Assembly (NCBI GenBank): GCA_043803745.1
Contig: JAZDJS010000036.1
Span: 1-56,640 of the forward strand
Length of the DNA: 56,640 nt
Origin: an archaeon
GTDB lineage: Archaea; SpSt-1190; DYHY01
Reading direction: 5' to 3'
The notes under the pieces were generated by a model that did no database searches, was not told the DNA's origin, and saw nothing but the letters and a program-made list of their open reading frames with translations. Shown one piece after another: positions 25,217 to 45,121 of the stretch (position 1 is its first letter; each line of letters begins with the position of its first letter). The position numbers and the translations under genes are program-made.

Positions 25217-27136
25217 ATGGCACCACCAGCACAGCAATCACCGGACAAGCACCACACTGATTTCCTTGCGAGCGTCAGGAGCGAGGTCCATTCGCCTTTT
25301 CTCGAGGAGGAGCGCGTACAGAGGGAGGAGGTCGAAGCGAGGAGCATTGAACGCCTCAAGAAAGTCCCGGAAAAATCCCCCGTAATAGAAACGAAAATCG
25401 ACGAGTTCTGCCGGAACCTTTCATTCATCAAGGATTTCACGGACGATCTTGACCGGGTTGCCGGAAAGATGTCGGTCGACCCGGCGAAGCTCGAGCGGAT
25501 TGCGAAAGTGCTCCAGGAGAAGAACGTCGTCGAGCTGATTTACCCGACCGGGGTTTTCTCGAAAATAAGGGTGCGGCTCGTGACCGACCTTGAGAGGAAG
25601 GACAAGCGGGAAATGATCGGGCGCGCAATCGAGAGCTATTCGATTGTTGCCTCCGGAGTCCCGGCAACGGTGACAATCCTCGCGGTATCCGGGGAAATCC
25701 GCCCAGTCTACTGGGTCGAGACTCCGCAAATAGGACCATACACCGAAAATTTCCTGGAATTCCTAAGGGACGAGCTCGCAAGGGAAAGCCCCGTCCAGGT
25801 CGAGGAAATAACCGACCCGAAGAAGCTCGAGGGGCTCAAGGAGAAATTCTACGCAAGCTCGTATGTCAGGGTTTCCATAGAGTTCCCGGAGCTGTCTGAG
25901 GAATTCAGGAAGATACTTGCGGGAACGCTCCTCCACAGGATGTACGGGCTCGGCGACCTTGAGATACTTCTTGCCGACGACTACCTCGAGGAAATCGGGA
26001 TAAACGGGGCGAGCGCACCCGTAGGAATTTACCACCGGAAATTCGGTTGGCTCAAGACGACAATAGTCCCCAAGTCGGAGGTCGAGGTTTACAACTACGC
26101 TTCCCAGATAGGGAGGAAAAGCGGGAGGGACATAACCAGCCTCAATCCGATAATGGATGCTGCGCTGACAACGGGGGACCGCGTTTCGGCGACCCTATTT
26201 CCCATTTCAACATCGGGGAACACGATAACAATCAGGCGTTTCGCGAGGAACCCCTGGACAATCTCGAACTTCCTTTCCGGAAAAACCCTTTCCGTCGAGA
26301 TGGCCGCCTTCCTCTGGCAGGCAATCCAGTATGAGATGAACCTCCTTGTCGCCGGAGGGACCGCGACCGGAAAGACAAGCGCGCTCAACACCCTTTGCGC
26401 GATGGTTCCGCCGACGAACCGGGTGATAACAATCGAGGACACCAGGGAACTCACAATGCCGAAATACCTCGCCTGGAACTGGATTCCCCTCACAACGAGG
26501 GGCGCGAACCCGGAGGGGCGCGGCGAGATTTCGATGCTCGACCTGATGGTCGCATCCCTGCGCATGAGGCCGGACAGGATCTTCCTCGGGGAAGTCCGCC
26601 GCCAGAGGGAAGCGGAGGTAATGTTCGAGGCAATGCACACGGGTCACGCAGTCTACGCGACGCTCCACGCCGACAATTCGAATCAGGTTATACGCCGTCT
26701 TACGGAGCCGCCCTTTTCGATTCCGCCGGCCGAGCTCGAAGCGCTCCATTTGATAGCGGTCCAGTACCGCGACCGGAGGACCGGAATCAGAAGGACCTAC
26801 GAGATTTCCGAGGTGATTCCCGCCTCCTCCGGGGAAGCTCTCTCGGTGAACGTCCTCTACAGGTGGCGCGCCCGCGGGGACGTTTTCGAGCAGAAGGCCG
26901 AGAGCACCCGGCTTTTCTCGGACCTGTCCCTCCACACGGGAATGTCGATGTCCGAGCTCAAGGAGGATTTGAAAAAGCGGGAGCAGATACTTTCCTGGAT
27001 GGTTTCAAAGGGGATAAGTTCGGTGGATTCCGTCGGAGCGGTAATGGGCCTTTACTACAAGAGCCCGGAGGAGCTCCTCGGGATAATTTCCGGCGGCGGG
27101 GGAATCGAAGAGGTTGATTCGGAAATTGGCGTCTGA
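25217..27136 (+). CDS. Type IV pilus / type II secretion assembly ATPase (TadA/CpaF/FlaI family)
   Basis: Walker A GGTATGKT, TIEDTREL (Asp box), LRMRPDRIFLGEVR (Walker B), HTGH...TLHA (His box). Confidence 0.96.
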   Translation: MAPPAQQSPDKHHTDFLASVRSEVHSPFLEEERVQREEVEARSIERLKKVPEKSPVIETKIDEFCRNLSFIKDFTDDLDRVAGKMSVDPAKLERIAKVLQEKNVVELIYPTGVFSKIRVRLVTDLERKDKREMIGRAIESYSIVASGVPATVTILAVSGEIRPVYWVETPQIGPYTENFLEFLRDELARESPVQVEEITDPKKLEGLKEKFYASSYVRVSIEFPELSEEFRKILAGTLLHRMYGLGDLEILLADDYLEEIGINGASAPVGIYHRKFGWLKTTIVPKSEVEVYNYASQIGRKSGRDITSLNPIMDAALTTGDRVSATLFPISTSGNTITIRRFARNPWTISNFLSGKTLSVEMAAFLWQAIQYEMNLLVAGGTATGKTSALNTLCAMVPPTNRVITIEDTRELTMPKYLAWNWIPLTTRGANPEGRGEISMLDLMVASLRMRPDRIFLGEVRRQREAEVMFEAMHTGHAVYATLHADNSNQVIRRLTEPPFSIPPAELEALHLIAVQYRDRRTGIRRTYEISEVIPASSGEALSVNVLYRWRARGDVFEQKAESTRLFSDLSLHTGMSMSELKEDLKKREQILSWMVSKGISSVDSVGAVMGLYYKSPEELLGIISGGGGIEEVDSEIGV

Positions 27137-27158
27137 AGAAGGGGCGGGCGCCTGAGAA

Positions 27159-28058
27159 ATGGCGAGCTCCGAAAGCCCGGTCTTCTTCATCCTCAAGCCG
27201 AAAACCTGCGCGAGGATAATGAGGTCCGTGATTGGGATTTCCTACTCCCTCTCGGAAATCTTGCCGAGCGTCAAATATGACCTTGAGGAGAACGGGCTCG
27301 AGCCCGGCGAATACATGAGCGCCGCAATAGTAAACACGCTGATATTCTCCGCCCTCATTTTCTCGGCCGTTTCATTTTTCGGATACTACAAAGGCCTTTT
27401 CGAAAGCGCGCTCGATTTCGTGAAAATAACCGGCGTGCCGACACTCGTTGTCTTCTTCTCCCTTCTCGGCTTCTTCCTCTACTATCCCAAAATGCTCCTT
27501 CTCAAATCGGCTGAAATGCTCGACAAGGACCTAGTTTTCGCGCTGAAGGACCTCCTTCTCCAGATCGATTCCGGGGTTTCCCTTTTCGACGGGCTGGTCA
27601 ACATAAGCCGCGCGGACTATGGCTCGGTATCCGACGAGTTCAGGACAGTTGTCCAGGACATCAATACGGGAATGCCCGAGGACAAGGCGCTTGAGAAGCT
27701 CGCGATAAAAACAGAATCCGAGTTCCTTAAGAAATCCCTTTGGCAGATAGTCACCGCCCTTCGTTCGGGCAGCGGGGCGCAGAAAGCGCTCGAAAGCGTG
27801 CTGCTCGTCCTCGAGAAGAACCAGCGGGACCAGATCAAGGCGTACACGCAGGAGCTGAACCTCTGGTCAATGATGTACATGGTTTTCGCGGTCGCGGTCC
27901 CCGGGCTTGGCACGACAATACTGATAATAATGTCGACCTTCGCCGGAGTCGAGATAAACGAGACGATCTTCCTCGTCATGATCGGCTCCTGCGTTTTCGT
28001 CGAGCTCGTCATAATAGGTTTCATCAAGGTGAGGAGGCCAACCGTCCACATGCTCTGA
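27159..28058 (+). CDS. Type IV pilus membrane platform protein (TadC/T2SS-F family)
   Basis: Several TM helices; SGVSLFDGL..IS..DYG.VS.EF...V.DI..G...AL motif; follows the ATPase. Confidence 0.9.
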   Translation: MASSESPVFFILKPKTCARIMRSVIGISYSLSEILPSVKYDLEENGLEPGEYMSAAIVNTLIFSALIFSAVSFFGYYKGLFESALDFVKITGVPTLVVFFSLLGFFLYYPKMLLLKSAEMLDKDLVFALKDLLLQIDSGVSLFDGLVNISRADYGSVSDEFRTVVQDINTGMPEDKALEKLAIKTESEFLKKSLWQIVTALRSGSGAQKALESVLLVLEKNQRDQIKAYTQELNLWSMMYMVFAVAVPGLGTTILIIMSTFAGVEINETIFLVMIGSCVFVELVIIGFIKVRRPTVHML

Positions 28059-28064
28059 GGAAAG

Positions 28065-29054
28065 ATGGCGGAATCCCTTTTCTTCTACCTTGTCGGCGGA
28101 ATCATTCCGAAGAAACAGCGCGAGAGTTTCAGGAAACTCCTCTTATATTCCGGAATCAGCGAGGATCCCCAGCATTGGTGGGGTCGCTCGATTTCCCTCT
28201 CGGCGGTTTCAGCGGCGGCGATTTTTGCAATTGTGACCTATCTCCTCCGGCTCCCGCAAATCTATGTCTACCTTTCCGCCCCGGTCGGTTTCGCGGTTTC
28301 CGCGCTCCTTTTTTACGTTGTCATCTATGCCCGGGTTGAGGAGAGGCGCAAGCGCGTCGAACGGATTCTTCCGGACCTTCTCCAGATGGTTTCCGCAAAC
28401 ATCCGGTCAGGACTCACGCCGGTCGTTGCGCTTCGGACGTCGGCCCGCCCGGAATTCGGAATACTCGAGGAGGAGATAAAGTACGCAACAACCAAATCCC
28501 TCGGGACCGAAAACCTGACTGATGCCCTGAAGGAAATCTCCCGGAGGATTGACTCGGAAGTCCTCGAGCGGGTCGTCGCCCTTTTTTCGGCAAGCATGAA
28601 GAGCGGGGGGAAGCTTGCGCGCCTCCTTGAATCAACTGCCGAGGACATCCGGAAGGGTCAGGAGCTCAAAGCCGAGCTTGTCACAAGCACGAAGATGTAC
28701 GTCATGTTCGTCCTTTTCGTCGTTACCGTGGGCACGCCGGTCCTACTCGCAATCTCCCTCCAGTTCATTGACATGGTTTCAGCTCTCCAGGCAAGCACGA
28801 ACGCCTCTTCGGCGGGCGCGGCAGCCCTCGGAGGCCTTGGGGTTTCAATCAACCTCAGCAGAAGCTTCCTCCTCCAGATTTCCTATTTCATCCTTGTAGC
28901 GAACGGGCTCCTTTCCGCGGTTCTTGTCGGAGTCATCCAGGAGGGAAGGCCGATGAGCGGGCTGAAATACGCGCCCTTCGTTATCGCAGGCTCTCTAGGG
29001 ACCTTTTTCGTTGTCCAGAACTACGTCCTGAAAAGCATCCTTTCGGTTGCCTAA
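28065..29054 (+). CDS. Second type IV pilus membrane platform protein (TadB/TadC family)
   Basis: LPDLLQMVSANIRSGLTP..AL..SARPEFG.L.EE, SGG.LA.LLE, GVIQEG; TM helices. Confidence 0.9.
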   Translation: MAESLFFYLVGGIIPKKQRESFRKLLLYSGISEDPQHWWGRSISLSAVSAAAIFAIVTYLLRLPQIYVYLSAPVGFAVSALLFYVVIYARVEERRKRVERILPDLLQMVSANIRSGLTPVVALRTSARPEFGILEEEIKYATTKSLGTENLTDALKEISRRIDSEVLERVVALFSASMKSGGKLARLLESTAEDIRKGQELKAELVTSTKMYVMFVLFVVTVGTPVLLAISLQFIDMVSALQASTNASSAGAAALGGLGVSINLSRSFLLQISYFILVANGLLSAVLVGVIQEGRPMSGLKYAPFVIAGSLGTFFVVQNYVLKSILSVA

Positions 29055-29158
29055 CGGCTTGCTTGAGTTCTGCCTTTTCCAAGGAATCCGGCTTTTCCTG
29101 ACTTTTGGATTAAAAAAGGGCAGAATAGGATAAATAGGGGTTTGTAGTAATTCTCCCC

Positions 29159-29647
29159 ATGGCGAAGCAAAAGGGACAGGGGCGAACAGCCCAAGCGTCC
29201 ACGGAGTATTTGATAATACTGGCAGTCGTCGTAATCGTCGCACTGGCAGTAGTCGGAGTGTTGGGGGGTTTCCCGACGGTATCCAAGGGAATCTCGGAAA
29301 AGGATTCGGCGACATACTGGCAGTCCGCGGATATCGGAATTGTCCGGTATTTCTCGAACTCGACCGGGACCTACGGGATTGTCAGGAACAACAAGAATTT
29401 TGCAATCTCAATAACCTCGGCAACGGCTCTATACAACGGCTTTGACGGTTCGTCAATCTCGCTTTCCCCAGGCGAAAGCACAACCGGATTCAAGATGATT
29501 TCGAACTCAACTGGCGCGATGTGCGCAACAGCCGGAACTGGTTCCTTCACAGTTGCAGTATCTGACCTTGGATTCGGCTACAGCGACCCGACCTACGGAA
29601 CAATCTACAACTTCACCGGGCTAAAGCCGCTGATTGGTTCCTGCTAG
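29159..29647 (+). CDS. Major pilin paralog 1 (class III signal peptide)
   Basis: RTA-QASTEYLIILAVVVIVALAVVGVLGGFP; ends GLKPLIGSC. Confidence 0.9.
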   Translation: MAKQKGQGRTAQASTEYLIILAVVVIVALAVVGVLGGFPTVSKGISEKDSATYWQSADIGIVRYFSNSTGTYGIVRNNKNFAISITSATALYNGFDGSSISLSPGESTTGFKMISNSTGAMCATAGTGSFTVAVSDLGFGYSDPTYGTIYNFTGLKPLIGSC

Positions 29648-29667
29648 GGAAATCTAGGTAGCTAGGC

Positions 29668-29697
29668 GGGGGAGAAATCCCCCAATTTTTATTTTAT
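29668..29697 (+). terminator. Hairpin plus T-rich tract after pilin 1
   Basis: GGGGGA-GAAA-TCCCCC followed by AATTTTTATTTTAT. Confidence 0.6.
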
Positions 29698-29714
29698 CCG
29701 GTCCAGCCGGAGGA

Positions 29715-30251
29715 CTAGTTATCGAAAACCTGCTGGCAGGCGTAGTTTATTGCAGCTCCGACAGTCAGGTAAAAAGTCGGTTCTTCGGCAGCCGCCGGGT
29801 GTTTGAAAGCGTAGAGAACAGCGGCGCCAACATCCAAAGACGGCCCGACCCAGGCAACAGTTCCCCGTCCCTGAACTGAAAGTTCCCCTTCGGATTTTCC
29901 GGATTCGTACGAAGAATAGCCTTCAAATCCCTCGAAAACGGTTCCCTTTTTCCCGCGGAGCTTGGAAGTTTCCGGAAGCTCAAGCTCAATCTTCTCAAGC
30001 TCGAAAAGGCCTTCAGAATCCCTCGCGAACGCAAGCTCGACTGAAACCGCCCAGGGAAGGTCCTTTAGGCGAACAGTCAACTCATCAGTTTCCCGGTCGT
30101 ATTCTATTTTCTCCGAAAAACGCCTGCCGGAAACTTCCTCAACCCCCTTTATCCCATCGGGGTGCCTTTTCTCAAAATTGGCAAAATATTCCCGCGCATC
30201 AGCAACAACCTCGGCAAGCTTTTCAGGGCCGATATATTCGGAAGCGGTCAT
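29715..30251 (-). CDS. Hypothetical cytoplasmic protein (ORFan-like)
   Basis: 178-aa acidic ORF; minus-strand TTATAAA about 25 nt upstream. Confidence 0.75.
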   Translation of the reverse strand: MTASEYIGPEKLAEVVADAREYFANFEKRHPDGIKGVEEVSGRRFSEKIEYDRETDELTVRLKDLPWAVSVELAFARDSEGLFELEKIELELPETSKLRGKKGTVFEGFEGYSSYESGKSEGELSVQGRGTVAWVGPSLDVGAAVLYAFKHPAAAEEPTFYLTVGAAINYACQQVFDN

Positions 30252-30287
30252 CTAGGAATCATCCAAGACCACTTTATAATGATTTCA

Positions 30288-30345
30288 ATTTCACTCAATC
30301 CAGTAAAAAGGATATATACTAAATAAGGGCTGTTTTTCCCCATGG
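30288..30345 (+). repeat. Duplicated pilin promoter block, copy 1
   Basis: 57 of 58 nt identical to 31774-31831; contains AAAAAGGATATATA (BRE/TATA-like). Confidence 0.9.
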
Positions 30346-30827
30346 AAAAACGCGCGCAGTCGTCAACGGAATATTTGGTTATCCTTGCGGTTGTGGTAAT
30401 AATCGCCCTCGCAGTGGTCGGGGTCCTTGGAGGATTCCCAACACTGACAAAAGGGGTATCGACGAAGGATTCGCTAGCATACTGGCAGTCGGGAGAGGTT
30501 GGGGTTGAAAAACCATATCTCTCAACCTCGACAAACTCCACGCTCGTCCTCCGGAACAACCAGAATTTCGGGATAACGATAACGGGGGTCTTTTTCAACA
30601 ACGCGCCTGCGCAAAACGGGACGAACTCGAACCTGCCCGCAACGCTTTCGCCCGGTCAGACTGTAACCGTCCTGATGACTGCGAACTCGACGAACCCCTG
30701 CATCGGAACGACTGCAGGTTCTGCGACGTTCTCCCCAATCGTGAAACTAACCTACTACGACACCTCGGCAAATGCGAACACATACCAGTTCACCGGAGCA
30801 AAGCCCCTCGTAGGAACGTGCCAGTAA
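30342..30827 (+). CDS. Major pilin paralog 2
   Basis: KRA-QSSTEYLVILAVVVIIALAVVGVLGGFP; ends GAKPLVGTCQ. Confidence 0.92.
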   Translation: MEKRAQSSTEYLVILAVVVIIALAVVGVLGGFPTLTKGVSTKDSLAYWQSGEVGVEKPYLSTSTNSTLVLRNNQNFGITITGVFFNNAPAQNGTNSNLPATLSPGQTVTVLMTANSTNPCIGTTAGSATFSPIVKLTYYDTSANANTYQFTGAKPLVGTCQ

Positions 30828-31080
30828 TAGGCTCGGGACTTCGCTGAGGCTCAGCCTTTGGTTGGTATCCAGCTTCTTAGCTGGACCTCGCTACCGTTCG
30901 GCCTGTCAGTAAATAGACCAACCAAAGATTTCGCCTGAGGGCTCAACCCTTAGTCAGCACGTGCCAGTAAGTCAACTGCCGACTACTGACCTCGTCCGGC
31001 TTCGGTCTTACTCGGCCGTTGGTTGGAACGATTCGCAGACCACCTTAGGCGGTCCGGCCGGTCCTCGGCTTGCCGGTATG
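30828..31080 (+). repeat. Array of recoded pilin 3'-end copies and hairpins (array A, 3 copies)
   Basis: Copies at 30849-30912 (34-nt insert), 30941-30970 (AQPLVSTCQ*) and 31010-31079 (40-nt insert, degenerate). Confidence 0.85.
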
Positions 31081-31124
31081 TCGCTACCATCAACCTCACT
31101 GCCTTCCCGCCTTTTTCTGAGCGC

Positions 31125-31700
31125 CTATCCTGGATATTCAAGCCCCGCATTCCTTTCGGCAATGTCAAGCCGCTCAAGGGCAAAGTGAGCGCCCAGGTTT
31201 GCAATCGGGTCTCCCGGAGCGAAGGAGAGCCTCACGAAATAAAGGTCTTTCTGGTTCCCTTCCCAGGCCCTGAGCCTGAGTGGAAGGCTGCCTTCGCCTT
31301 GGACCAGTTCAGTTTCCCCAAAGCCAATTGATTCCCGATATCCCCAGGCCGAGAAAGCGTCAACCAGAAGCGCCTCGACCTCCTCGACAGGCCCGTAATA
31401 GGCAAGGCTTATTTCGCGCAGCCTAAGCTCTTCGCCGATTTTCCCGAAAATTGCCGCAACATGTTCTTCTCTCTCCGGAATATCCTCAATCCGGTCGCTT
31501 TCCCTTGCGGTTGAAACATAGATGCAACCCGCGTATTCCTTATGGGGAGCGTCTCCCAATACAAACCCTTGCAGACAAGTCCCTTCCTTATATTTCGTCC
31601 TGACGTCCTTAGCCGAATCGTCAAGCAACAGGGTCGCCATTCCTTTCGCCCTTGCCAAAAACTTCCGGGAATCGGTTTTCCTGCTAGTAACAACTGTCAT
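31125..31700 (-). CDS. Hypothetical cytoplasmic protein (ORFan-like)
   Basis: Long ORF; ATG 31700 lies about 26-32 nt below a minus-strand TTTAAAA at 31732-31726 (the track uses GTG 31718). Confidence 0.7.
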   Translation of the reverse strand: MTVVTSRKTDSRKFLARAKGMATLLLDDSAKDVRTKYKEGTCLQGFVLGDAPHKEYAGCIYVSTARESDRIEDIPEREEHVAAIFGKIGEELRLREISLAYYGPVEEVEALLVDAFSAWGYRESIGFGETELVQGEGSLPLRLRAWEGNQKDLYFVRLSFAPGDPIANLGAHFALERLDIAERNAGLEYPG

Positions 31701-31773
31701 TGTCTTCTGGAGGACCACTTTGGAGTTTTAAACATATCTTCAATTTAACTGAAAATTTCCGTTTCGTCTCTAG

Positions 31774-31831
31774 ATTTCACTCAATCCAGTAAAAAGGATA
31801 TATACTAAATAACGGCTGTTTTTCCCCATGG
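31774..31831 (+). repeat. Duplicated pilin promoter block, copy 2
   Basis: 57 of 58 nt identical to 30288-30345. Confidence 0.9.
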
Positions 31832-32331
31832 CAAAGAGCAAAGGACAACAGTCCAGAGGACAATCGTCAACGGAATATTTGGTTATCCTTGCGGTTGTGG
31901 TAATAATCGCCCTCGCAGTGGTCGGGGTCCTTGGAGGATTCCCAACACTGACCAAAGGGGTATCGACGAAGGATTCGCTAGCATACTGGCAGTCCGGGGA
32001 TATTGGCATTGAGCGCCCATATCTCTCAACCTCGACAAACTCCACGCTCGTCCTCCGGAACAACCAGAATTTCGGGATAACGATAACAGGCGTATTTTTC
32101 AACAACGCGCCTGCGCAAAACGGGACGAACTCGAACCTGCCCGCAACGCTTTCGCCCGGTCAGACGGTTGCAGTCCTAGTAACTGCGAACGCAACAAACC
32201 CGTGCAACGGGGGAAGTTCCGGCTCATCAACGTTCTCCCCGAGCGTGAAAATAACCTACTATGACACTTCATCCTCAGGGAACACATACCAGTTCACCGG
32301 AGCAAAGCCCCTCGTAGGAACGTGTCAATAA
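31828..32331 (+). CDS. Major pilin paralog 3
   Basis: SRG-QSSTEYLVILAVV...; long blocks nearly identical in nucleotide sequence to paralog 2; ends GAKPLVGTCQ. Confidence 0.92.
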   Translation: MAKSKGQQSRGQSSTEYLVILAVVVIIALAVVGVLGGFPTLTKGVSTKDSLAYWQSGDIGIERPYLSTSTNSTLVLRNNQNFGITITGVFFNNAPAQNGTNSNLPATLSPGQTVAVLVTANATNPCNGGSSGSSTFSPSVKITYYDTSSSGNTYQFTGAKPLVGTCQ

Positions 32332-32666
32332 TAGGCTCGGGACTTCGCTGAAGCTCAGCCTTTAGTTGGAACCTGCCAATAATCTGTTTGCCGACTACTG
32401 ACCTCGCTGAGGCTCAGCCTTTGGTTGATATCCAGCTTCTCAGCTGGACTTCGCTACCGTTCAGCCTGCTAGTAATTAGGCCAACCAAAGATTTCTCCAG
32501 TGCCCGCGGTTAACCCGATTTCGGGTGCGGGCACGGACCCTCTGAGGAGGGGCCGAAGCTCAGCCTTTGGTTGGTACCTGTCAGTAAATAGACCAACCAA
32601 AGATTTCGCCTGAGGGCTCAACCCTTAGTCTGAATTGTCCGCAGACAACCTTCGGCCTGCCAATAA
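32332..32666 (+). repeat. Array of recoded pilin 3'-end copies and hairpins (array B, 4 copies)
   Basis: Copies at 32353-32382 (AQPLVGTCQ*), 32412-32475 (34-nt insert), 32558-32587 (AQPLVGTCQ*) and 32616-32666 (21-nt insert). Confidence 0.88.
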
Positions 32667-32694
32667 GTCAGCAGCCAGCTAAAGACCTGGCTGG

Positions 32695-32734
32695 GGGGCG
32701 CGTGCGAGAACGCGCCCCGAGTTTTTCCTTTTTT
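32695..32734 (+). terminator. GC-rich hairpin plus T tract closing array B
   Basis: GGGGCGCGT-GCGAGA-ACGCGCCCC followed by GAGTTTTTCCTTTTTT. Confidence 0.65.
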
Positions 32735-33296
32735 AATTGACCGCCCTGAAAAGCTTCTCGATTCTCTTGCATTCTTCCAGGTCAAGCGCCTCGAGAACCC
32801 CGTAAACAATCGGCTTCAAGTCACCCCTGCCGTCGTCCCCAGCAACTCCTGCAAACTCAAGTTCAAGGAACGCCGGACTGAACGGGAATTTGTCAATTTC
32901 TGCAATTGCAATTCCTTTGGAATATCTCCTTCTCTCAACATATTTGACATCACGCTCGAACCCCGTCCCGATTAGCGCGGCTTCAATATTGGCAAGCGAG
33001 TCCCCAAGTCTGACCTGTGCGTGTATCATGCGCCCGTCCGGAAAGGAATACTGGACGCGGTCGCCCCGTTTTCCTCCGGTGCGGATAATGAGATCAGTCG
33101 TTTTTCCGACAAGGTGTCCGGGGCGGACTGAAACGGCACCTTGGGATTGCGCGGGCGCAGTGTAATCAAAAGGCCGGTCGAAAACGAGGTCAAGTTCAGC
33201 TGGCTTTACGCCCTCTCCAGAATATACCGCCGCGCCCGTCCCGAACGCAAGCTCCGAAAACCCCAGCCCGAAATAGGCATCTGAAATCCCCTTCAT
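32733..33296 (-). CDS. Hypothetical cytoplasmic protein
   Basis: 187-aa ORF with minus-strand TTATAAA upstream. The C-terminal half (IEAAL...GF.....VERRRY...IDKFP....FLELE) is faintly reminiscent of CYTH-like proteins, unverified. Confidence 0.7.
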   Translation of the reverse strand: MKGISDAYFGLGFSELAFGTGAAVYSGEGVKPAELDLVFDRPFDYTAPAQSQGAVSVRPGHLVGKTTDLIIRTGGKRGDRVQYSFPDGRMIHAQVRLGDSLANIEAALIGTGFERDVKYVERRRYSKGIAIAEIDKFPFSPAFLELEFAGVAGDDGRGDLKPIVYGVLEALDLEECKRIEKLFRAVN

Positions 33297-33356
33297 TCAG
33301 CGCTCAGTTGTTCCCATTTTATAATAGCTCCCTTTTTTAAACCAAAAGCCGAGAAA

Positions 33357-33890
33357 ATGCCCGCCGTGACAGGACGAACTAAGAAACGGAATTACATTCT
33401 TTCTGCTGCTGAGAGGAATTTCAGGCCGGAGGAATATTACAAGAAGCTCCCTCTCAAGGAACTTGAAAGGGAGCTTGCGGCCGACTGGGTCCTGGCAAGC
33501 CTCCTTCCGGAAACTGTCCTTGTTCCTGCGACGGTCTTTTCGCAACTGACTGCGGAGCCGTTTTTCTCCCCGGACCTCCCGAACTATTCGAACATTGCGC
33601 ATTTCCACGTCTCTTTCGCAGTCGGGCAGGCTTGCGAGTTCCTTTCAGAACCGGGCGCCCGCCGTCTGTTCGCAGGAGCCTCTGCCGCGGTTTCAGGGGC
33701 AACCGAGGGACAGGATATTGCAACCGCATTCCCTGAAAAGCTCAACGACTCCCTGTTCGACGCGGCTGCCGATGTTTTCGGCTTCTATTTCGGGCTGAAA
33801 TACCAGGGAAAGGTTAACAGCCATTTCCGCAGCCTTGCCGGGAAATATTCCCGGGTATACCACGCGCCAGTCCTCGGAATGTGGAAATAA
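33357..33890 (+). CDS. Hypothetical protein
   Basis: 177-aa ORF divergent from the previous gene; TTTTAAA box upstream. Confidence 0.65.
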   Translation: MPAVTGRTKKRNYILSAAERNFRPEEYYKKLPLKELERELAADWVLASLLPETVLVPATVFSQLTAEPFFSPDLPNYSNIAHFHVSFAVGQACEFLSEPGARRLFAGASAAVSGATEGQDIATAFPEKLNDSLFDAAADVFGFYFGLKYQGKVNSHFRSLAGKYSRVYHAPVLGMWK

Positions 33891-33939
33891 TCCAAGATTC
33901 CGCGATTAAGTTAAATATTACAAAGCCGGAAACAGGGCT

Positions 33940-34410
33940 ATGACGAAGAAGCGCTCCCAAGCCTCAGTCGAATATCTCGTGATTCTTGCGGCAGTTGTGA
34001 TAATTTCCCTTGCAGTTGTAGGCGTCCTGACTGGTTTTCCCGCGCTTACCAGGGGGATTTCAACGAAGGAATCCCTTGCATACTGGCAGTCGGCAGACAT
34101 CGGGATTGAGAAGCCCTACATGAGCGTTTCAGCAACAGATGGAACAAGCACGGTCGTCCTCCGGAACAACCACAATTTCAACATCGTAGTCACCGACATA
34201 ACCTTCGGCGGGTCGGCTGTCGAGTACTCCGGCCTCCCGGCAACCCTGACGCCCGGCCAGACGAAAACCGTCGCCTTCGTTGCGCGGAACCCCTGTACAA
34301 CCCTGGGGAACACATATTCGATAAACGTCGCGGTGGTTTACCAGGATGCCTCGACAGGGAGCGCATACACCTTCTCCGGAACAAGGCCCCTTATCGGAAC
34401 CTGCCAATGA
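33940..34410 (+). CDS. Major pilin paralog 4
   Basis: KKRS-QASVEYLVILAAVVIISLAVVGVLTGFP; ends GTRPLIGTCQ. Confidence 0.9.
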   Translation: MTKKRSQASVEYLVILAAVVIISLAVVGVLTGFPALTRGISTKESLAYWQSADIGIEKPYMSVSATDGTSTVVLRNNHNFNIVVTDITFGGSAVEYSGLPATLTPGQTKTVAFVARNPCTTLGNTYSINVAVVYQDASTGSAYTFSGTRPLIGTCQ

Positions 34411-34475
34411 GAGGACGGGGGGCGGAAAAAGCAGTGGGTTTAAAAATATCGCAAGCGGGAGTTCCGCCTGCCGAT

Positions 34476-35588
34476 ATGGCCAAGACAATTGCGTTTTTCT
34501 CCGGAAAGGGCGGCGTTGGAAAGACCTTCCTTGCAACCTCCCTTGGCGCAGCCCTCGTTTCCGAATTCCGCAAGAGGGTCCTCCTTGTCGAGGGCAACCT
34601 TTCGAGCCCGGGGCTCGGGGTCTTCCTTAACATTGTAAAGCCTGCCGCGACAATCCAGGACGTTCTTTCGGGCGCGGTAACTCCGGAAAGGGCGGTTTTC
34701 CACCACGATAACGGGCTTGATGTCCTGCCCGGCGCGCTCTCAATTGGCAGGGAGGCCATTGATTTCTCAAGGCTTGGCGCGCTTTCCCCGGTTTTCCAGA
34801 ACTATGATTTCGTCATAATCGACGGAGCGGGGACGATAACCGATGGCGAGCTTAGTTTCGCAAGGATTTCGGATGAGGTTGTCGTTGTCGCAACCCCGGA
34901 CCTCCCGTCAGTCACCGGCGCAATGAAGCTTATCGGGACGCTGCAAGCCCAGGGGATTTTCGTCAGGGGGCTCGCAATTAACCGGATGCATCCCTCGGAC
35001 AAGAGGCACGAGCTCAAGGATTCTGAAATCGAAAGCTCGACAGGGCAGAGGGTTCTCCTGAAGCTTCCAGAGGATACTGCGGTTCCGCAAAGCACTGCCG
35101 CAAGAACGCCCGCAACGCTTTTCGCCCCGTTTTCCCCGGCAACGCTTGAAGTCAAGAATTTCGCAGCCGATTTTTCCGGGGTTCCGAGGCCTGAGAAACC
35201 ATCCCTTATGCAGAAGCTTTTCGGCGGAGGAAAGAGCGAGGTGAAACAAGCTTCCCCGATTTTGTCCCCGCATCTCGAGGGGATACGGAGCTCGGTTGTC
35301 TCTTCAGGAGTTCCTCCAGGGTCCCTAACGGGTTCCCCCCAGGTCCGCCCGGAAATTCAGAACCAACCTGTAAGCAAGCAAAGCCAGCCAATTCCGGCGC
35401 AGCCACAGGCGCAGCCACAGGCGCAGCCACAACAACCCGATGCTTCAGCCGGCTCTCCGGCAAGCCCCCCGGCAAGCCCCCCGGCAAGCCCGCAAAAATT
35501 AAAAGACGACTACATGCGGCAGTGGATGGAAGGGAAAATAACCCTTGACCAGATGATGGAAAAGATCAAGGAACTGGAGAAGAAATAG
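34476..35588 (+). CDS. MinD/ParA-family ATPase with Pro/Gln-rich linker and C-terminal SHOCT-like helix pair
   Basis: Deviant Walker A SGKGGVGKT, YDFVIIDG, VVATPDLPSVT, LAINR; ATG 34476 below TTTAAAAA. Confidence 0.9.
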   Translation: MAKTIAFFSGKGGVGKTFLATSLGAALVSEFRKRVLLVEGNLSSPGLGVFLNIVKPAATIQDVLSGAVTPERAVFHHDNGLDVLPGALSIGREAIDFSRLGALSPVFQNYDFVIIDGAGTITDGELSFARISDEVVVVATPDLPSVTGAMKLIGTLQAQGIFVRGLAINRMHPSDKRHELKDSEIESSTGQRVLLKLPEDTAVPQSTAARTPATLFAPFSPATLEVKNFAADFSGVPRPEKPSLMQKLFGGGKSEVKQASPILSPHLEGIRSSVVSSGVPPGSLTGSPQVRPEIQNQPVSKQSQPIPAQPQAQPQAQPQQPDASAGSPASPPASPPASPQKLKDDYMRQWMEGKITLDQMMEKIKELEKK

Positions 35589-42597: not shown

Positions 42598-44952
42598 GTG
42601 GCTGAGCAAAACCCCCCGGCGCCATTTTTCATAATCCCCCCGGTCAGGATCTGCGACTTCCCGGACGTGCGCCTGCTTGCGCCATTCGTTGCCGCCGACT
42701 TCTTCTCCCGGATTTTCGGCGGGCAGGCCGTTTGCGCGACAATCTCGGACTGTCCCGAGGCAACTGCCGCGTTCAATTCAATCAGGGAGGCGCGCTTCCC
42801 CGTCCGCGAGAAATTCTCAAAAGAGGCCCTTCCGGACGATTTGCCCCTGATTGATTCAATGGAAAAATTTTCCAAGTATTTCCTTGGTAAGCTTGAGGAC
42901 GCGCTCACCCAGCTTTCGGCTTCCTCCTGCTCGCGCGTCAGTTCCGAAAGCCCCCTCGGGAAATCGGTTGCCGAGTATTTCCTCAGGGAAACTCGCCTGG
43001 CCGGGATTTCCGCCGAGGGGAAACCTTTCCAGCCATTCTGTCCGGAGTGCGAGGTCTTCCTCCCGTCCTTCGGAAAAATCTCCCGGAAGTTTTTCGCCCT
43101 TTTCCAGACCGGAGAATTCCATCTGGCAGTCGGTTTGGAAAAGCCGGAGGAGCTCTTTTCAGCATCCGCAATTTCAGTTGACCCGGAAAGCTTCCTTGAA
43201 ATTTCAGGCAAAATTCTCTCCGCGAAAGGGGACTTTCCAGGAAGCTTTTCGAGGAGTCCCGCCGCAGATTTCGTCGGGGCATCAGCCAAAAACCCCCTCA
43301 CCGAAGAGTTCGTCCCGATCCTTCCGGGGGAAAAACTGGGGATAGTCTCCCCGGGAACCCGGGAAAGCGACCTAAAGTTCCTGAAAAACTTCCCGGAGGA
43401 AACCGCGAGCAAGTGGGACCTTTCCCGGAAAAAGCTTGAGGAAATCCAGGTAAAATTCCCGGTGCGCGCAGGTCTCTTCACCGAAGCTTGCGGTTCCTTT
43501 TTCGGCTTTCCGGTCGAGGACGGGCGGCGGGCAATCCTTGCGGAGATTTCCAAACGGGGCGCGCTATTGGAGGTTCCTAAGGCCTCCGGAAAATGCTTTT
43601 GTGGGTGCGCGCTAGTCCCGAGGGAAACTACCGGGGACTTTTTCCTCCCGAGCAATTCAAGAATTCAGGAGAAACCCCAGGCATACCTTGGAAGGGAAAA
43701 TGCGCATTTCACGTTCCAGGCAATAGCCTCTGAAAGACTCTCCACCCAAATCCTTCCGCTCTTCTCCGGATTCCCCGAGGCGAAAAACCCGGAAGCATAC
43801 AGCTATCTTTTGGGGAACGAGAAAAACTTCAATCTTGTCTGGAAAGGGTCCGGCTATTCCCGCGAGGAGCTTCTTTCAGCCGGAAAAATTGTTTCGGACC
43901 GCTTCAGCCATGCAACGCTTGTCTGCCGGAGCTTCCGGGAAGCCCAGGAATTCTTCCTTGCCTCGCTAGCCTTCGAGCCGCTCGGAAGGATTCCCGACAT
44001 TTTTCAAATAAGCTCCCGGGCGGGATCGGGGCCCGCACCGGGGCCCGCACTCGCCTTTTCGGCAGCCCTGAGAAGCGGCCTTGCCGAGGAAATCCGGCTT
44101 GCGATACTCACCGGCAACCTTAATCCGGATGAGAAAGCCCTTCTCAGGCTGAAGAGGACAATCTCGAAATTCAAGCTTGAAGCGCTCCGGATCTCAAGCC
44201 TTCCGGAAGCTGCTACTGAGCGCAGACGCGGAGTCCTCTCCGCGGCATATTCCCGGAGGAAAGTCGATTTTCTTTCGGCAGCCGGGAGGCGCAGCATTCC
44301 CGAGGCAGTTTCCCAGGCGTTCCTCTTCCTTTCGGATTTCCGGGAGTTCGCGCGGTCCAACGGACAGAAATCCGAAGGGCTGGAAGTTTTCCGGAGTTTT
44401 GCGAAGGAAATCCTTGCGCCCCTGCTTCCAAAAACCTCCGAGGAAATACTCTCGAACCTCCGGGATATTGTCATAACTTCTCCCGAGCCCGATTCAATCG
44501 GGCCAAGCGAGGAAAAGCCGGAACAACTCGAGAAAATCCTCCTTTCCCGTGAAATCGTCGAAACGCTCCTTTCCGACTCAAGGAAGCTCGTTGAGCTTGC
44601 GGGAAAACCGAAGGAAATGAAGATTTACCTTGCCGAGGAGTGGAAATACCGGCTTTTCAGGAACATTTTCGAGTTCGGGGTGAAGCCCGGTCCAAACGAT
44701 CCGATTTTCCAAAGACTAGGAGTCAGCTTGCGGCCCGAAGAGCTTGAAAAATTCCTGCTTACCTTGAGGAAAACTCGATTTGACCGGGAGTTCCTTTCCC
44801 TTGACGAGGAGGCGCGCGCGATTTCAGGCGCAATTTCCCTCATTTCAGCGGAAACCGGGGTGAAAACAGTCCAGGTTCTTGTCAACCGGGAAATCCCATT
44901 CGAGAAAATGCTCCGAGCACGCCCGGGCAAGCCGGCAATCTTTTTTGACTGA
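42598..44952 (+). CDS. Degenerate leucyl-tRNA synthetase-like protein (no recognisable HIGH or KMSKS)
   Basis: Collinear remnants of archaeal LeuRS: FCPEC, KPEELF....VDPE, G.SAKNPLT.E.VPILP, CFCG, PEAYSYLLG, LAPLLPKTSEEI, KIYLAEEWK, ARPGKPAIFF. Confidence 0.75.
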   Translation: MAEQNPPAPFFIIPPVRICDFPDVRLLAPFVAADFFSRIFGGQAVCATISDCPEATAAFNSIREARFPVREKFSKEALPDDLPLIDSMEKFSKYFLGKLEDALTQLSASSCSRVSSESPLGKSVAEYFLRETRLAGISAEGKPFQPFCPECEVFLPSFGKISRKFFALFQTGEFHLAVGLEKPEELFSASAISVDPESFLEISGKILSAKGDFPGSFSRSPAADFVGASAKNPLTEEFVPILPGEKLGIVSPGTRESDLKFLKNFPEETASKWDLSRKKLEEIQVKFPVRAGLFTEACGSFFGFPVEDGRRAILAEISKRGALLEVPKASGKCFCGCALVPRETTGDFFLPSNSRIQEKPQAYLGRENAHFTFQAIASERLSTQILPLFSGFPEAKNPEAYSYLLGNEKNFNLVWKGSGYSREELLSAGKIVSDRFSHATLVCRSFREAQEFFLASLAFEPLGRIPDIFQISSRAGSGPAPGPALAFSAALRSGLAEEIRLAILTGNLNPDEKALLRLKRTISKFKLEALRISSLPEAATERRRGVLSAAYSRRKVDFLSAAGRRSIPEAVSQAFLFLSDFREFARSNGQKSEGLEVFRSFAKEILAPLLPKTSEEILSNLRDIVITSPEPDSIGPSEEKPEQLEKILLSREIVETLLSDSRKLVELAGKPKEMKIYLAEEWKYRLFRNIFEFGVKPGPNDPIFQRLGVSLRPEELEKFLLTLRKTRFDREFLSLDEEARAISGAISLISAETGVKTVQVLVNREIPFEKMLRARPGKPAIFFD

Positions 44953-45121
44953 ATGGAAGGCACAAACGTGCCGGCAGTCTGGAGCCAAAAGAGGGTAGGA
45001 AAACGGAAGGCAAGCCCGCAATTTTCTTCAAATGAACCCTTTGCAAAAGGCTTCACCCAAAGCGCCCCGTCTTCGCTTGAAAACTCGACAGGGCAAGCCC
45101 GCAATTTTCTTCAAGTTCTGA
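44926..45121 (+). repeat. Three copies of the GKPAIFF-coding gene end at an 83-nt period
   Basis: Copies start at 44926 (gene), 45009 and 45092; the latter two share an identical 23-mer GGCAAGCCCGCAATTTTCTTCAA. Confidence 0.88.

Follow-up and report, generated by a model that had tools for sequence, protein, structure and literature searches.

Silent, synonymously recoded copies of gene ends behind pilin genes and other genes of a small archaeon

Why should a gene be followed by several silent copies of its own last codons, spelling the same peptide in other codons? The question is raised by a 56,640-nt stretch of archaeal DNA, called the window here (assembly GCA_043803745.1, contig JAZDJS010000036.1, positions 1 to 56,640, forward strand; GTDB lineage SpSt-1190, DYHY01), in which two of four small pilin-like genes (pilins 1 to 4) have arrays of such copies downstream. 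We describe these arrays and their occurrence in the genome and family, and we weigh an explanation in which locally duplicated gene ends may be exchanged between diverged alleles.

Methods

The window is contig C36 of a draft genome, G000 (1.23 Mb, 54% G+C, 51 contigs, completeness 90%). Relatives named below are G001, of the same genus, G003, of another genus of the family, and G004, of the same order. The last 6 to 10 residues plus the stop of each open reading frame (ORF) of at least 80 aa were compared with the three-frame translation of the next 600 nt. Screens of relatives covered 294, 160, 320, and 320 kb of four other genomes.

Results

Pilin 3 ends with CCC CTC GTA GGA ACG TGT CAA TAA (32308-32331). 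Behind it, 32359-32382 reads CCT TTA GTT GGA ACC TGC CAA TAA and 32564-32587 reads CCT TTG GTT GGT ACC TGT CAG TAA, with six and seven differences from the expressed end, every one synonymous (6/6 and 7/7). These sequences and counts, quoted in a first-pass annotation of the window, were read directly here. In all, seven silent copies of the last codons and stop lie downstream of pilin 2 (array A, copies A1 to A3) and pilin 3 (array B, copies B1 to B4), three of them uninterrupted and four split or decayed (Table 1). The intact copies encode AQPLV[G/S]TCQ* (AQPLVSTCQ* in A2, AQPLVGTCQ* in B1 and B3). The common start point claimed for the copies was seen as one left boundary, with GCTCA(G/A)CC opening those at 30849, 30941, 32353, 32412, 32558, and 32616. 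A 36-nt repeat family has eight members, given as six in the arrays together with the ends of the coding sequences of pilins 2, 3, and 4.

A chance origin of the pilin copies is excluded by three results. Six or seven random substitutions in the 24-nt tail would leave peptide and stop intact with a probability of 3.5e-5 or 5e-6; the four changes between the silent copies B1 and B3 are again all synonymous (4/4; P = 2e-3); and a six-frame genome scan for P[LIV][VIL][GSAD][TS]C..* returned eight matches, namely, the four pilin ends, the three intact copies, and one unrelated sequence on contig C42. RNA wobble was rejected as the source of the differences, many of which are transversions. All three frames are represented among the silent units (offsets of 51, 256, and 143 nt), which come after one or two stop codons, and B1, which is in frame with pilin 3, follows TAA TAG; the three different frames and the two stops ahead of B1 rule out use of the copies by read-through or frameshifting.

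Units are 51 to 110 nt long and consist of a junction motif, tail codons, a stop, and a short flank. The flank is either TGCCGACTACTGAC or ATAGACCAACCAAAGAT; the latter, antisense to the PLVG codons, closes a stem of 11 bp that has the stop inside it. The junction motif, about 20 to 22 nt long (GAYYTCG N3-12 CTCRGCC), precedes the intact copies and also splits A1 and B2, in which the PLVG codons are followed by an 18-nt hairpin and the full 20-nt motif before the tail resumes as C TGY (C/T)AG TAA. In B2 (32412-32476), Gly is further changed to Asp and Gln to a stop. Every junction motif ends in GCC, and the tail's Pro or Cys codon follows, either way at CC microhomologies. A bulge-helix-bulge intron was rejected for these interruptions, the inserts being a hairpin plus junction motif located past the stop codon.

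Both arrays fold far better than shuffled sequences (z = -3.65 for array A and -5.06 for array B). The terminator placed at 32695 by the first-pass annotation coincides with the strongest terminator-like site within 29000-34600, a hairpin and T-run at 32695-32718. The arrays have blocks in common (54 nt at 100% and 92 nt at 91% identity), and array A looks like array B minus unit B1, a structure at odds with the strict chronological stack that had been proposed.

Table 1. Features of the two pilin arrays and of a second gene with tail copies in the window
Feature	Position	Strand	Remarks
Pilin 2 gene, 161 aa	30342-30827	+	From ORF list; expressed end PLVGTCQ* at 30804-30827, then TAG
Junction motif GACTTCGCTGAGGCTCAGCC	30837-30856	+	10 nt past pilin 2 stop
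Copy A1: AQPLVG codons, hairpin 30868-30885, junction motif 30884-30903, C TGT CAG TAA	30849-30912	+	Direct reading
Antisense copy CCAACCAAAG	30918-30927	+	Pairs with CTTTGGTTGG of A1 and encloses the stop codon position; inverted repeat, folding
Junction motif variant GATTTCGCCTGAGGGCTCAACC	30927-30948	+	
Copy A2: GCT CAA CCC TTA GTC AGC ACG TGC CAG TAA (AQPLVSTCQ*)	30941-30970	+	Flank TGCCGACTACTGAC at 30977-30990
Copy A3, decayed: CCG TTG GTT GGA ACG, insert, TTGCCGGTAT	31010-31085	+	
Pilin 3 gene, 167 aa	31828-32331	+	From ORF list; expressed end at 32308-32331, then TAG
Junction motif GACTTCGCTGAAGCTCAGCC	32341-32360	+	
Copy B1: AQPLVGTCQ*	32353-32382	+	Flank TGCCGACTACTGAC at 32389-32402
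Junction motif GACCTCGCTGAGGCTCAGCC	32400-32419	+	
Copy B2: PLVD codons, hairpin 32431-32448, junction motif 32447-32466, C TGC TAG TAA	32412-32476	+	91% identical to A1 over 92 nt
Two-hairpin element TTCTCCAGTGC...GAGGAGGGGC	32493-32553	+	Related copies on contigs C49, C43, C19, and C15
Copy B3: AQPLVGTCQ*	32558-32587	+	PLVG codons pair with 32593-32602
Junction motif variant	32602-32623	+	32577-32630 is 100% identical to 30902-30955
Copy B4: AQPLV codons, hairpin 32635-32648, C TGC CAA TAA	32616-32666	+	Split like A1 and B2
G+C-rich hairpin, then T-run	32695-32735	+	Terminator-like end of array B
Second case: gene 42598-44952, no Pfam match, end GKPAIFFD*	44926-45121	+	Silent copies downstream

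The process is not pilin specific. The genome-wide search of tails against downstream sequence that the first-pass annotation had proposed found 15 copies behind 11 of the 1215 ORFs of G000, against 0.0-0.1 per shuffle of gene/downstream pairs. A nucleotide-only, frame-blind scan gave 12 pairs with at least 20 of 27 identical bases versus 0.4 expected (20 versus 2.5 at a threshold of 19); on reading the rows by eye, the real-looking pairs were third-position biased and the chance-looking pairs even. In 16 coding/relic pairs, a set picked by protein similarity, the differences at codon positions 1, 2, and 3 numbered 14, 12, and 70 (proportion of synonymous differences [pS], 0.625; of nonsynonymous differences [pN], 0.076). 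Copies at other loci include switches between serine TCN and AGY and between arginine AGR and CGN codons, and three PKIAS* copies at C49 66742-67089 end in TAA, TAG, and TGA. These third-position differences, codon switches, and kept but varied stops bear out the earlier claim that the copies were once coding ends. The pair at C48 49827-50213 is a mosaic, in which 35 identical nucleotides are followed by codons that all differ at the third position (7/7); this switch is a pattern that neutral decay of a silent copy cannot explain. Hairpin arms on C49 differ in a compensatory manner (CCAAAATAGC/GCTATTTTGG versus CGAAGATTGC/GCAATCTTCG).

The second case in the window lies behind the gene at 42598-44952, with silent, recoded copies of its last 8 codons at 45009-45035 (GKPAIFFK*) and 45092-45121 (GKPAIFFKF*), 56 and 139 nt past the stop. 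They differ from the coding end by four synonymous changes and D to K and are identical to each other over 23 nt.

Tails match their own downstream region only. The exceptions are the pilin paralogues, two pairs probably explained by contig ends or paralogy, and a few 7-of-8 matches; on this ground, modules moving from locus to locus are ruled out. Duplicated gene starts were found for 2 of 1221 ORFs, versus 9-11 for tails, a weak comparison given the unreliable start codons.

Contrary to the first-pass statement that the copies are not decayed local duplications, exact tandem copies exist: a 61-nt tail-plus-hairpin unit is present three times, unchanged, on contig C7 of G001, and exact repeats of 27-66 nt occur in G000. 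On C11, a 41-nt repeat surrounds a terminator-like element of 88 nt, also present at C42 and C34. Two larger inserts, of ~1 kb (C33 8398-9547 and C50 10742-11768), lie between identical copies of the end of the host gene, 66 nt long in one case and 27 nt in the other. Each holds a nucleotidyltransferase (NTP_transf_2) gene with a small partner upstream of it; the partner proteins had no Pfam match, and a HEPN-like identity for them would be conjectural. The C50 host gene is, we presume from its sequence, that of an arginyl-tRNA synthetase. Further short VERM* copies are present at this putative synthetase locus, and its G001 orthologue has copies of its own. tRNA 3' ends are also partly copied beside intact tRNA genes (C15 39250-39750 and C45 100-260), where they are separated by terminator-like palindromes with A/T runs, of the same family as those at the C11 and C34 protein-tail copies.

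Counts of the junction motif against a reversed control were 22 versus 3 in G000, 8 versus 1 in G001, and 10 versus 1 in G003, compared with 0-18 versus 0-7 in the other 38 genomes (highest, G008, 18/5, G006, 12/7, and G029, 8/2; G002, 1/1). Among the 41 genomes searched, enrichment is confined to these three members of the family. By eye, the motif was seen at about 4 of the 11 loci inspected. Contigs with the motif in G000 include C1, C8, C12, C15, C20, C38, C43, C48, C49, and C51, and it is often clustered between variable hairpins (C49 54700-54990). A second short motif, ATCTGGAG(C), occurs in three other arrays. The terminator-like palindrome, ~50-90 nt long, separates tail copies at C11 and C34, and at C42 and C15 it has tRNAs next to it.

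The pilin search had matches in 6 of 41 related genomes. In the partial genome samples, relics lay behind 4 of 285 ORFs in G001, 1 of 157 in G003, 1 of 305 in G004, and none of 327 in G019; the single G004 match, at +469 nt, may be a neighbouring paralogue. Tail copies are present in two family relatives and are essentially missing from two more distant archaea.

An allele whose coding end is of the relic type, which the first-pass annotation had suggested looking for, was found in G001 and on a metagenome contig, L022. Their pilin coding end, with the 14-nt flank TGCCGACTACTGAC, is of the B1/A2 type and is followed by one interrupted relic and a terminator. It lies 4 nt from B1, 3 nt from B3, and 4-5 nt from A2 (3-5 nt from the relics overall), versus 6-8 nt from the coding ends of G000 itself. 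The expressed pilin ends of G000 are 2-4 nt from those of G003, where the expressed end is of the G000 expressed type, TAA TAG included, and is followed by a truncated relic and a decayed PLVGARR*. Over its last ~90 nt, pilin 3 has 80% identity with G003 and 58-70% with G001 and L022; in the middle of the gene the order is reversed, at 75-85% with G001 and L022 and 55-66% with G003.

At C48 49827-50213, the relic ends GAA AGG GTT TGA, exactly as the G001 coding end does, and the expressed end is CTT GAG AGA GTC TAG, like that of G003; G001 keeps the spacer, without the relic. At both loci, then, a unit silent in G000 is expressed in its congener. At the C21 and C49 loci, the silent end is nearer the relatives' coding end only as a weaker trend. 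Orthologues of other relic-bearing genes in G001 and G003 have relics of their own, matching their own lineage's peptide; none were seen in G002. Pilin-1-type genes of G003 have a recoded PLIGSC* relic (TCC to AGC), and old relics in that genome are decayed (PLVGARR* and PMAGLWRA*). A second G001 pilin gene (L002, G001 C6, 630-733) is broken by a run of N, and the array there lies outside the comparison.

The pilin genes lie behind genes for a T2SSE ATPase and two T2SSF-type membrane proteins (25217-29054). They are four in number (pilins 1 to 4 at 29159-29647, 30342-30827, 31828-32331, and 33940-34410) and have the C-terminus (K/R)PL(I/V)G(T/S)C(Q)* in common. We named them by resemblance, from class III-like N-termini, the T2SSE/T2SSF neighbours, and the common C-terminus; PF04021 (class III signal peptide) scores were E = 0.03 and 9e-4, under the Pfam curated cut-off. 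With their promoters, pilins 2 and 3 share 95% identity over 300 nt, and 97% over 62 nt (30288-30656 versus 31774-32160). Their C-terminal thirds are only 70-73% identical, unlike the near-identical promoters and 5' halves. The profile looks like that of gene conversion together with a variable surface region. Three ORFs on the minus strand, 178-197 aa long and with no Pfam match, alternate with the pilin genes (29715-30251, 31125-31718, and 32733-33296). The one tRNA in the window is distant from the arrays, and an integrative element targeting a tRNA was rejected as their cause.

An Rfam search of 29000-34600 gave no matches at E values up to 1. The element TTCTCCRGTGC-(variable loop)-GCACGGACCCTCTGAGGAGGGGC, without an Rfam match in the window, is present at at least five loci (window 32493-32553; C49 54915-54970; C43 4800-4860; C19 38215-38250; C15 62940-62990), with its stems kept and its loop varying in length.

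Discussion

The explanation that we lean towards, with about half of our confidence behind it, is that gene-end/hairpin modules are duplicated locally and are exchanged or replaced by recombination between diverged alleles, the silent units being former expressed ends. Many genes of this family would then end inside a short stem-loop module. Its 5' arm and loop would be made of the last 5-10 codons, with the stop in the loop or next to it, and its 3' arm of an antisense stretch just downstream; the conserved ~20-nt junction motif (GAYYTCG...CTCRGCC) would often trail it. Modules would duplicate in tandem through local recombination or slippage, and local tandem duplication is one source of units, because exact young copies exist. 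Recombination and gene conversion, with no dedicated enzyme, would then swap units, delete them, or write over them. The partners would be other units of the array, paralogous arrays, and, presumably, diverged alleles or orthologues, and crossovers would lie within the gene body, at CC microhomologies, or at the conserved junction or flank, which would serve as islands of homology. Units differ almost only at synonymous sites because each intact one would have been shaped while translated somewhere. Once silenced, a unit would decay or be split by further hairpin-plus-junction insertions. The silent units are probably untranslated now; as RNA, they would give the pilin messages a strongly folded 3' tail, though any role of the hairpins is conjectural. 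In favour of this explanation are the synonymous pattern of the differences, the occurrence of copies across the genome and family, the exact young duplicates, the relics that match expressed ends elsewhere at two loci, the mosaic pair, the compensatory hairpin arms, the decay of old relics, and the apparent reshuffling of units between arrays A and B.

Several points weigh against it. Recombination between sequences 20-30% apart is inefficient. The comparison rests on three relatives and one metagenome contig, all draft or metagenome-derived, and no donor lineage was identified; the arrays are known from assemblies alone; and the 1215 ORFs of the screen are a crude greedy set with unreliable start codons. 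Conservation of the non-coding flanks (TGCCGACTACTGAC and the junction motif) exceeds that of third codon positions, which simple fossil decay does not predict and which hints at a function or a dedicated mechanism. The interrupted relics of L022 and G000 differ at third positions only, so that independent interruptions would be required. Finally, at the pilin and C48 loci the direction of change may be either of two: G000 may have received or kept a G003-like end in front of its native end, or deletion or gene conversion may have promoted a silent unit in G001 and L022, and the likeness to G003 may then be ancestral retention. Of the first-pass proposal, the idea of former coding ends stands, a strict chronological record is not supported, and a new 3' end may or may not have been placed ahead of the old one.

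We consider it unlikely, but worth serious attention, that the units are purely local tandem duplicates of terminator or 3'-hairpin modules, similar to repetitive extragenic palindromes (REPs), which selection on structure would keep frozen as hairpin arrays that stabilise or terminate RNA while the expressed end drifts synonymously, with no exchange between lineages. The exact tandem copies, the strong folding of both arrays, the covarying hairpin arms, and the conservation of flanks and junction motifs across genera speak for it, as do the relic common to G000 and G001, in which 1 of 18 nt is changed versus 4 of 27 in the coding ends, and the duplication of tRNA ends, with terminator-like palindromes. 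However, the silent copies B1, B3, and A2 differ mutually at third positions in loops as well as stems, and structure alone would not protect loop codons or stops (TAA, TAG, and TGA are all kept). Mosaic pairs, moreover, jump from 0% to 100% third-position difference, and the expressed pilin end hardly differs from the one in another genus.

To the same small degree we entertain the idea that a dedicated mechanism builds and exchanges "end cassettes," junction-bounded hairpin modules that copy the last codons, or the last bases of a tRNA, of the gene beside them. Recoded spare ends would be kept usable and, after an insertion into the expressed end, would take its place through gene conversion or deletion. 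If true, this would be a genome-wide system of repair or turnover for gene 3' ends, with no described prokaryotic counterpart.

A little less probable again are miniature mobile cassettes, in which a dedicated integron-like or site- or structure-specific recombinase or nuclease would insert hairpin-plus-junction modules at gene 3' ends, the insertion duplicating its target or carrying a tail copy from the previous host. The junction motif is indeed a family-specific multicopy element that splits older relics at the same point, the second motif and the palindrome between tail copies and beside tRNAs recur at other loci, and the two nucleotidyltransferase cassettes are flanked by identical tail repeats. 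Against this, profile searches of G000, at its 90% completeness, found no tyrosine recombinase (PF00589), Xer type included, with a positive control in 14 of 14 genomes, no Y1 transposase of the RAYT type (PF01797), and no reverse transcriptase (PF00078). The consensus of integron attC cores is RYYYAAC ... GTTRRRY; GTTRRRY is missing from both arrays, and RYYYAAC occurs once in each. Tail copies are gene specific and lie behind their own gene only, the junction motif is limited to the minority of loci noted above, and the repeats (18-66 nt) are unlike a fixed target duplication. Open frames within the arrays reach only 45-70 codons of repeat sequence, and the spacers, of 24-140 nt, hold no gene. 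No endonuclease ORF was seen between copies, the ~1-kb inserts elsewhere being NTP_transf_2, and no HMM search for LAGLIDADG or GIY-YIG was made.

It is quite improbable that the silent units are still in use, with the frame restored by DNA deletion or gene conversion or by RNA processing at the hairpins and with selection keeping spare ends. Intact units persist even though some arrays are older than the genus split, B1 is in frame with pilin 3, and the G001 end at C48 49827-50213 has relic-type codons with the spacer kept, as relic-to-gene conversion would give. The units nevertheless lie in all three frames behind one or two stops, 4 of 7 pilin units and several in G003 are broken, and all units give the same peptide, so switching leaves the protein unchanged. 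An assembly artefact, in which strain variants of a gene end were concatenated in a metagenome-assembled genome, would suit a draft of 51 contigs but has next to no probability, the same architecture and homologous spacers being present in three independent assemblies and one metagenome contig, with unique, structured spacers between units.

The closest known cases are prophage e14 at icd of Escherichia coli and C-terminal duplications in fungal mitochondria. According to excerpts of one account (PMC13626634), the expressed icd gene has a replacement 3' end and the displaced native end lies silent downstream (icdC); the two differ mainly synonymously, and recombination between them yields a working chimera. 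The arrays share with this case an expressed and a silent 3' end with mostly synonymous differences. There, however, a 15-kb element with its own recombination system separates a single pair, whereas here spacers are 24-140 nt, stacks reach four or five units, ~1% of genes show such copies, and the search for an integrase found none. An integrase element of this kind was rejected as an explanation: the duplicated 3' end is present, and an element with an integrase between the ends is not. As excerpted from another source (PMC3630166), mobile endonuclease ORFs produced C-terminal duplications in Glomus atp6, atp9, cox2, and nad3 and in Allomyces atp6. The inserted C-terminus has low nucleotide and high protein identity to the native one, from which its authors infer transfer from a diverged lineage, and the native C-terminus stays downstream, closest to the relatives' coding sequence (PMC3630166, same excerpts). 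Likewise, at the pilins and at C48 49827-50213, the silent end is nearer the relatives' coding end than the expressed end is. In the fungi, however, an endonuclease ORF of ~0.4-1 kb between the copies drives the event, whereas here there is no ORF except in the two ~1-kb nucleotidyltransferase cassettes, and the units are shorter (18-66 nt) and form arrays. What sets the archaeal case apart from both is the lack of an element between copies, the very short units, the arrays, and the involvement of ~1% of genes in an archaeal family. A non-exhaustive literature search found these two analogues and no account of short recoded gene-end arrays in archaea.

Other systems are more distant. In Neisseria, promoterless partial pilS copies feed pilE by gene conversion and have conserved short 3' repeats. 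The arrays resemble these in having partial promoterless copies near an expressed pilin gene, short 3' repeats, and gene conversion, but pilS copies are variable and alter the protein, whereas here only the last 9 codons are copied, the peptide is the same, and non-pilin and tRNA genes are involved. Antigenic variation of the pilE/pilS type was rejected, as the intact copies encode the same PLVGTCQ* with no variant segments. Integron attC arrays, including those of archaeal integrons, are similar in their imperfect hairpins with variable arms, conserved junctions at ORF 3' ends, and toxin-antitoxin-like cargo; an integron array was rejected for want of a PF00589 integrase and GTTRRRY cores, and here each unit is a copy of the end of the resident gene beside it. 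REPs and bacterial interspersed mosaic elements (BIMEs) are multicopy short bacterial palindromes behind genes that could stabilise mRNA 3' ends. REPs do not copy the coding end of the upstream gene, and REP/BIME with RAYT was rejected in the absence of a PF01797 match. A diversity-generating retroelement was rejected as well, as PF00078 had no matches and the differences involve all bases and are synonymous rather than adenine specific.

The comparison of tails with the 600 nt downstream is simple and general, gave near-zero false positives in G000, and can be used on any genome. In these lineages, annotation should allow for short in-frame "ghost" ends and for 3' regions rich in repeats, behind pilin genes and others alike. 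The arrays raise the questions of what role the junction motif and the stop-enclosing hairpins play, whether silent ends are reused, and how far recombination extends between diverged archaeal lineages. If the explanation by local duplication and exchange between diverged alleles holds, gene 3' ends in these small archaea would be a hot spot of duplication and inter-lineage exchange, and the silent units would be dated snapshots of former alleles, molecular fossils of a kind that is rare in prokaryotes.

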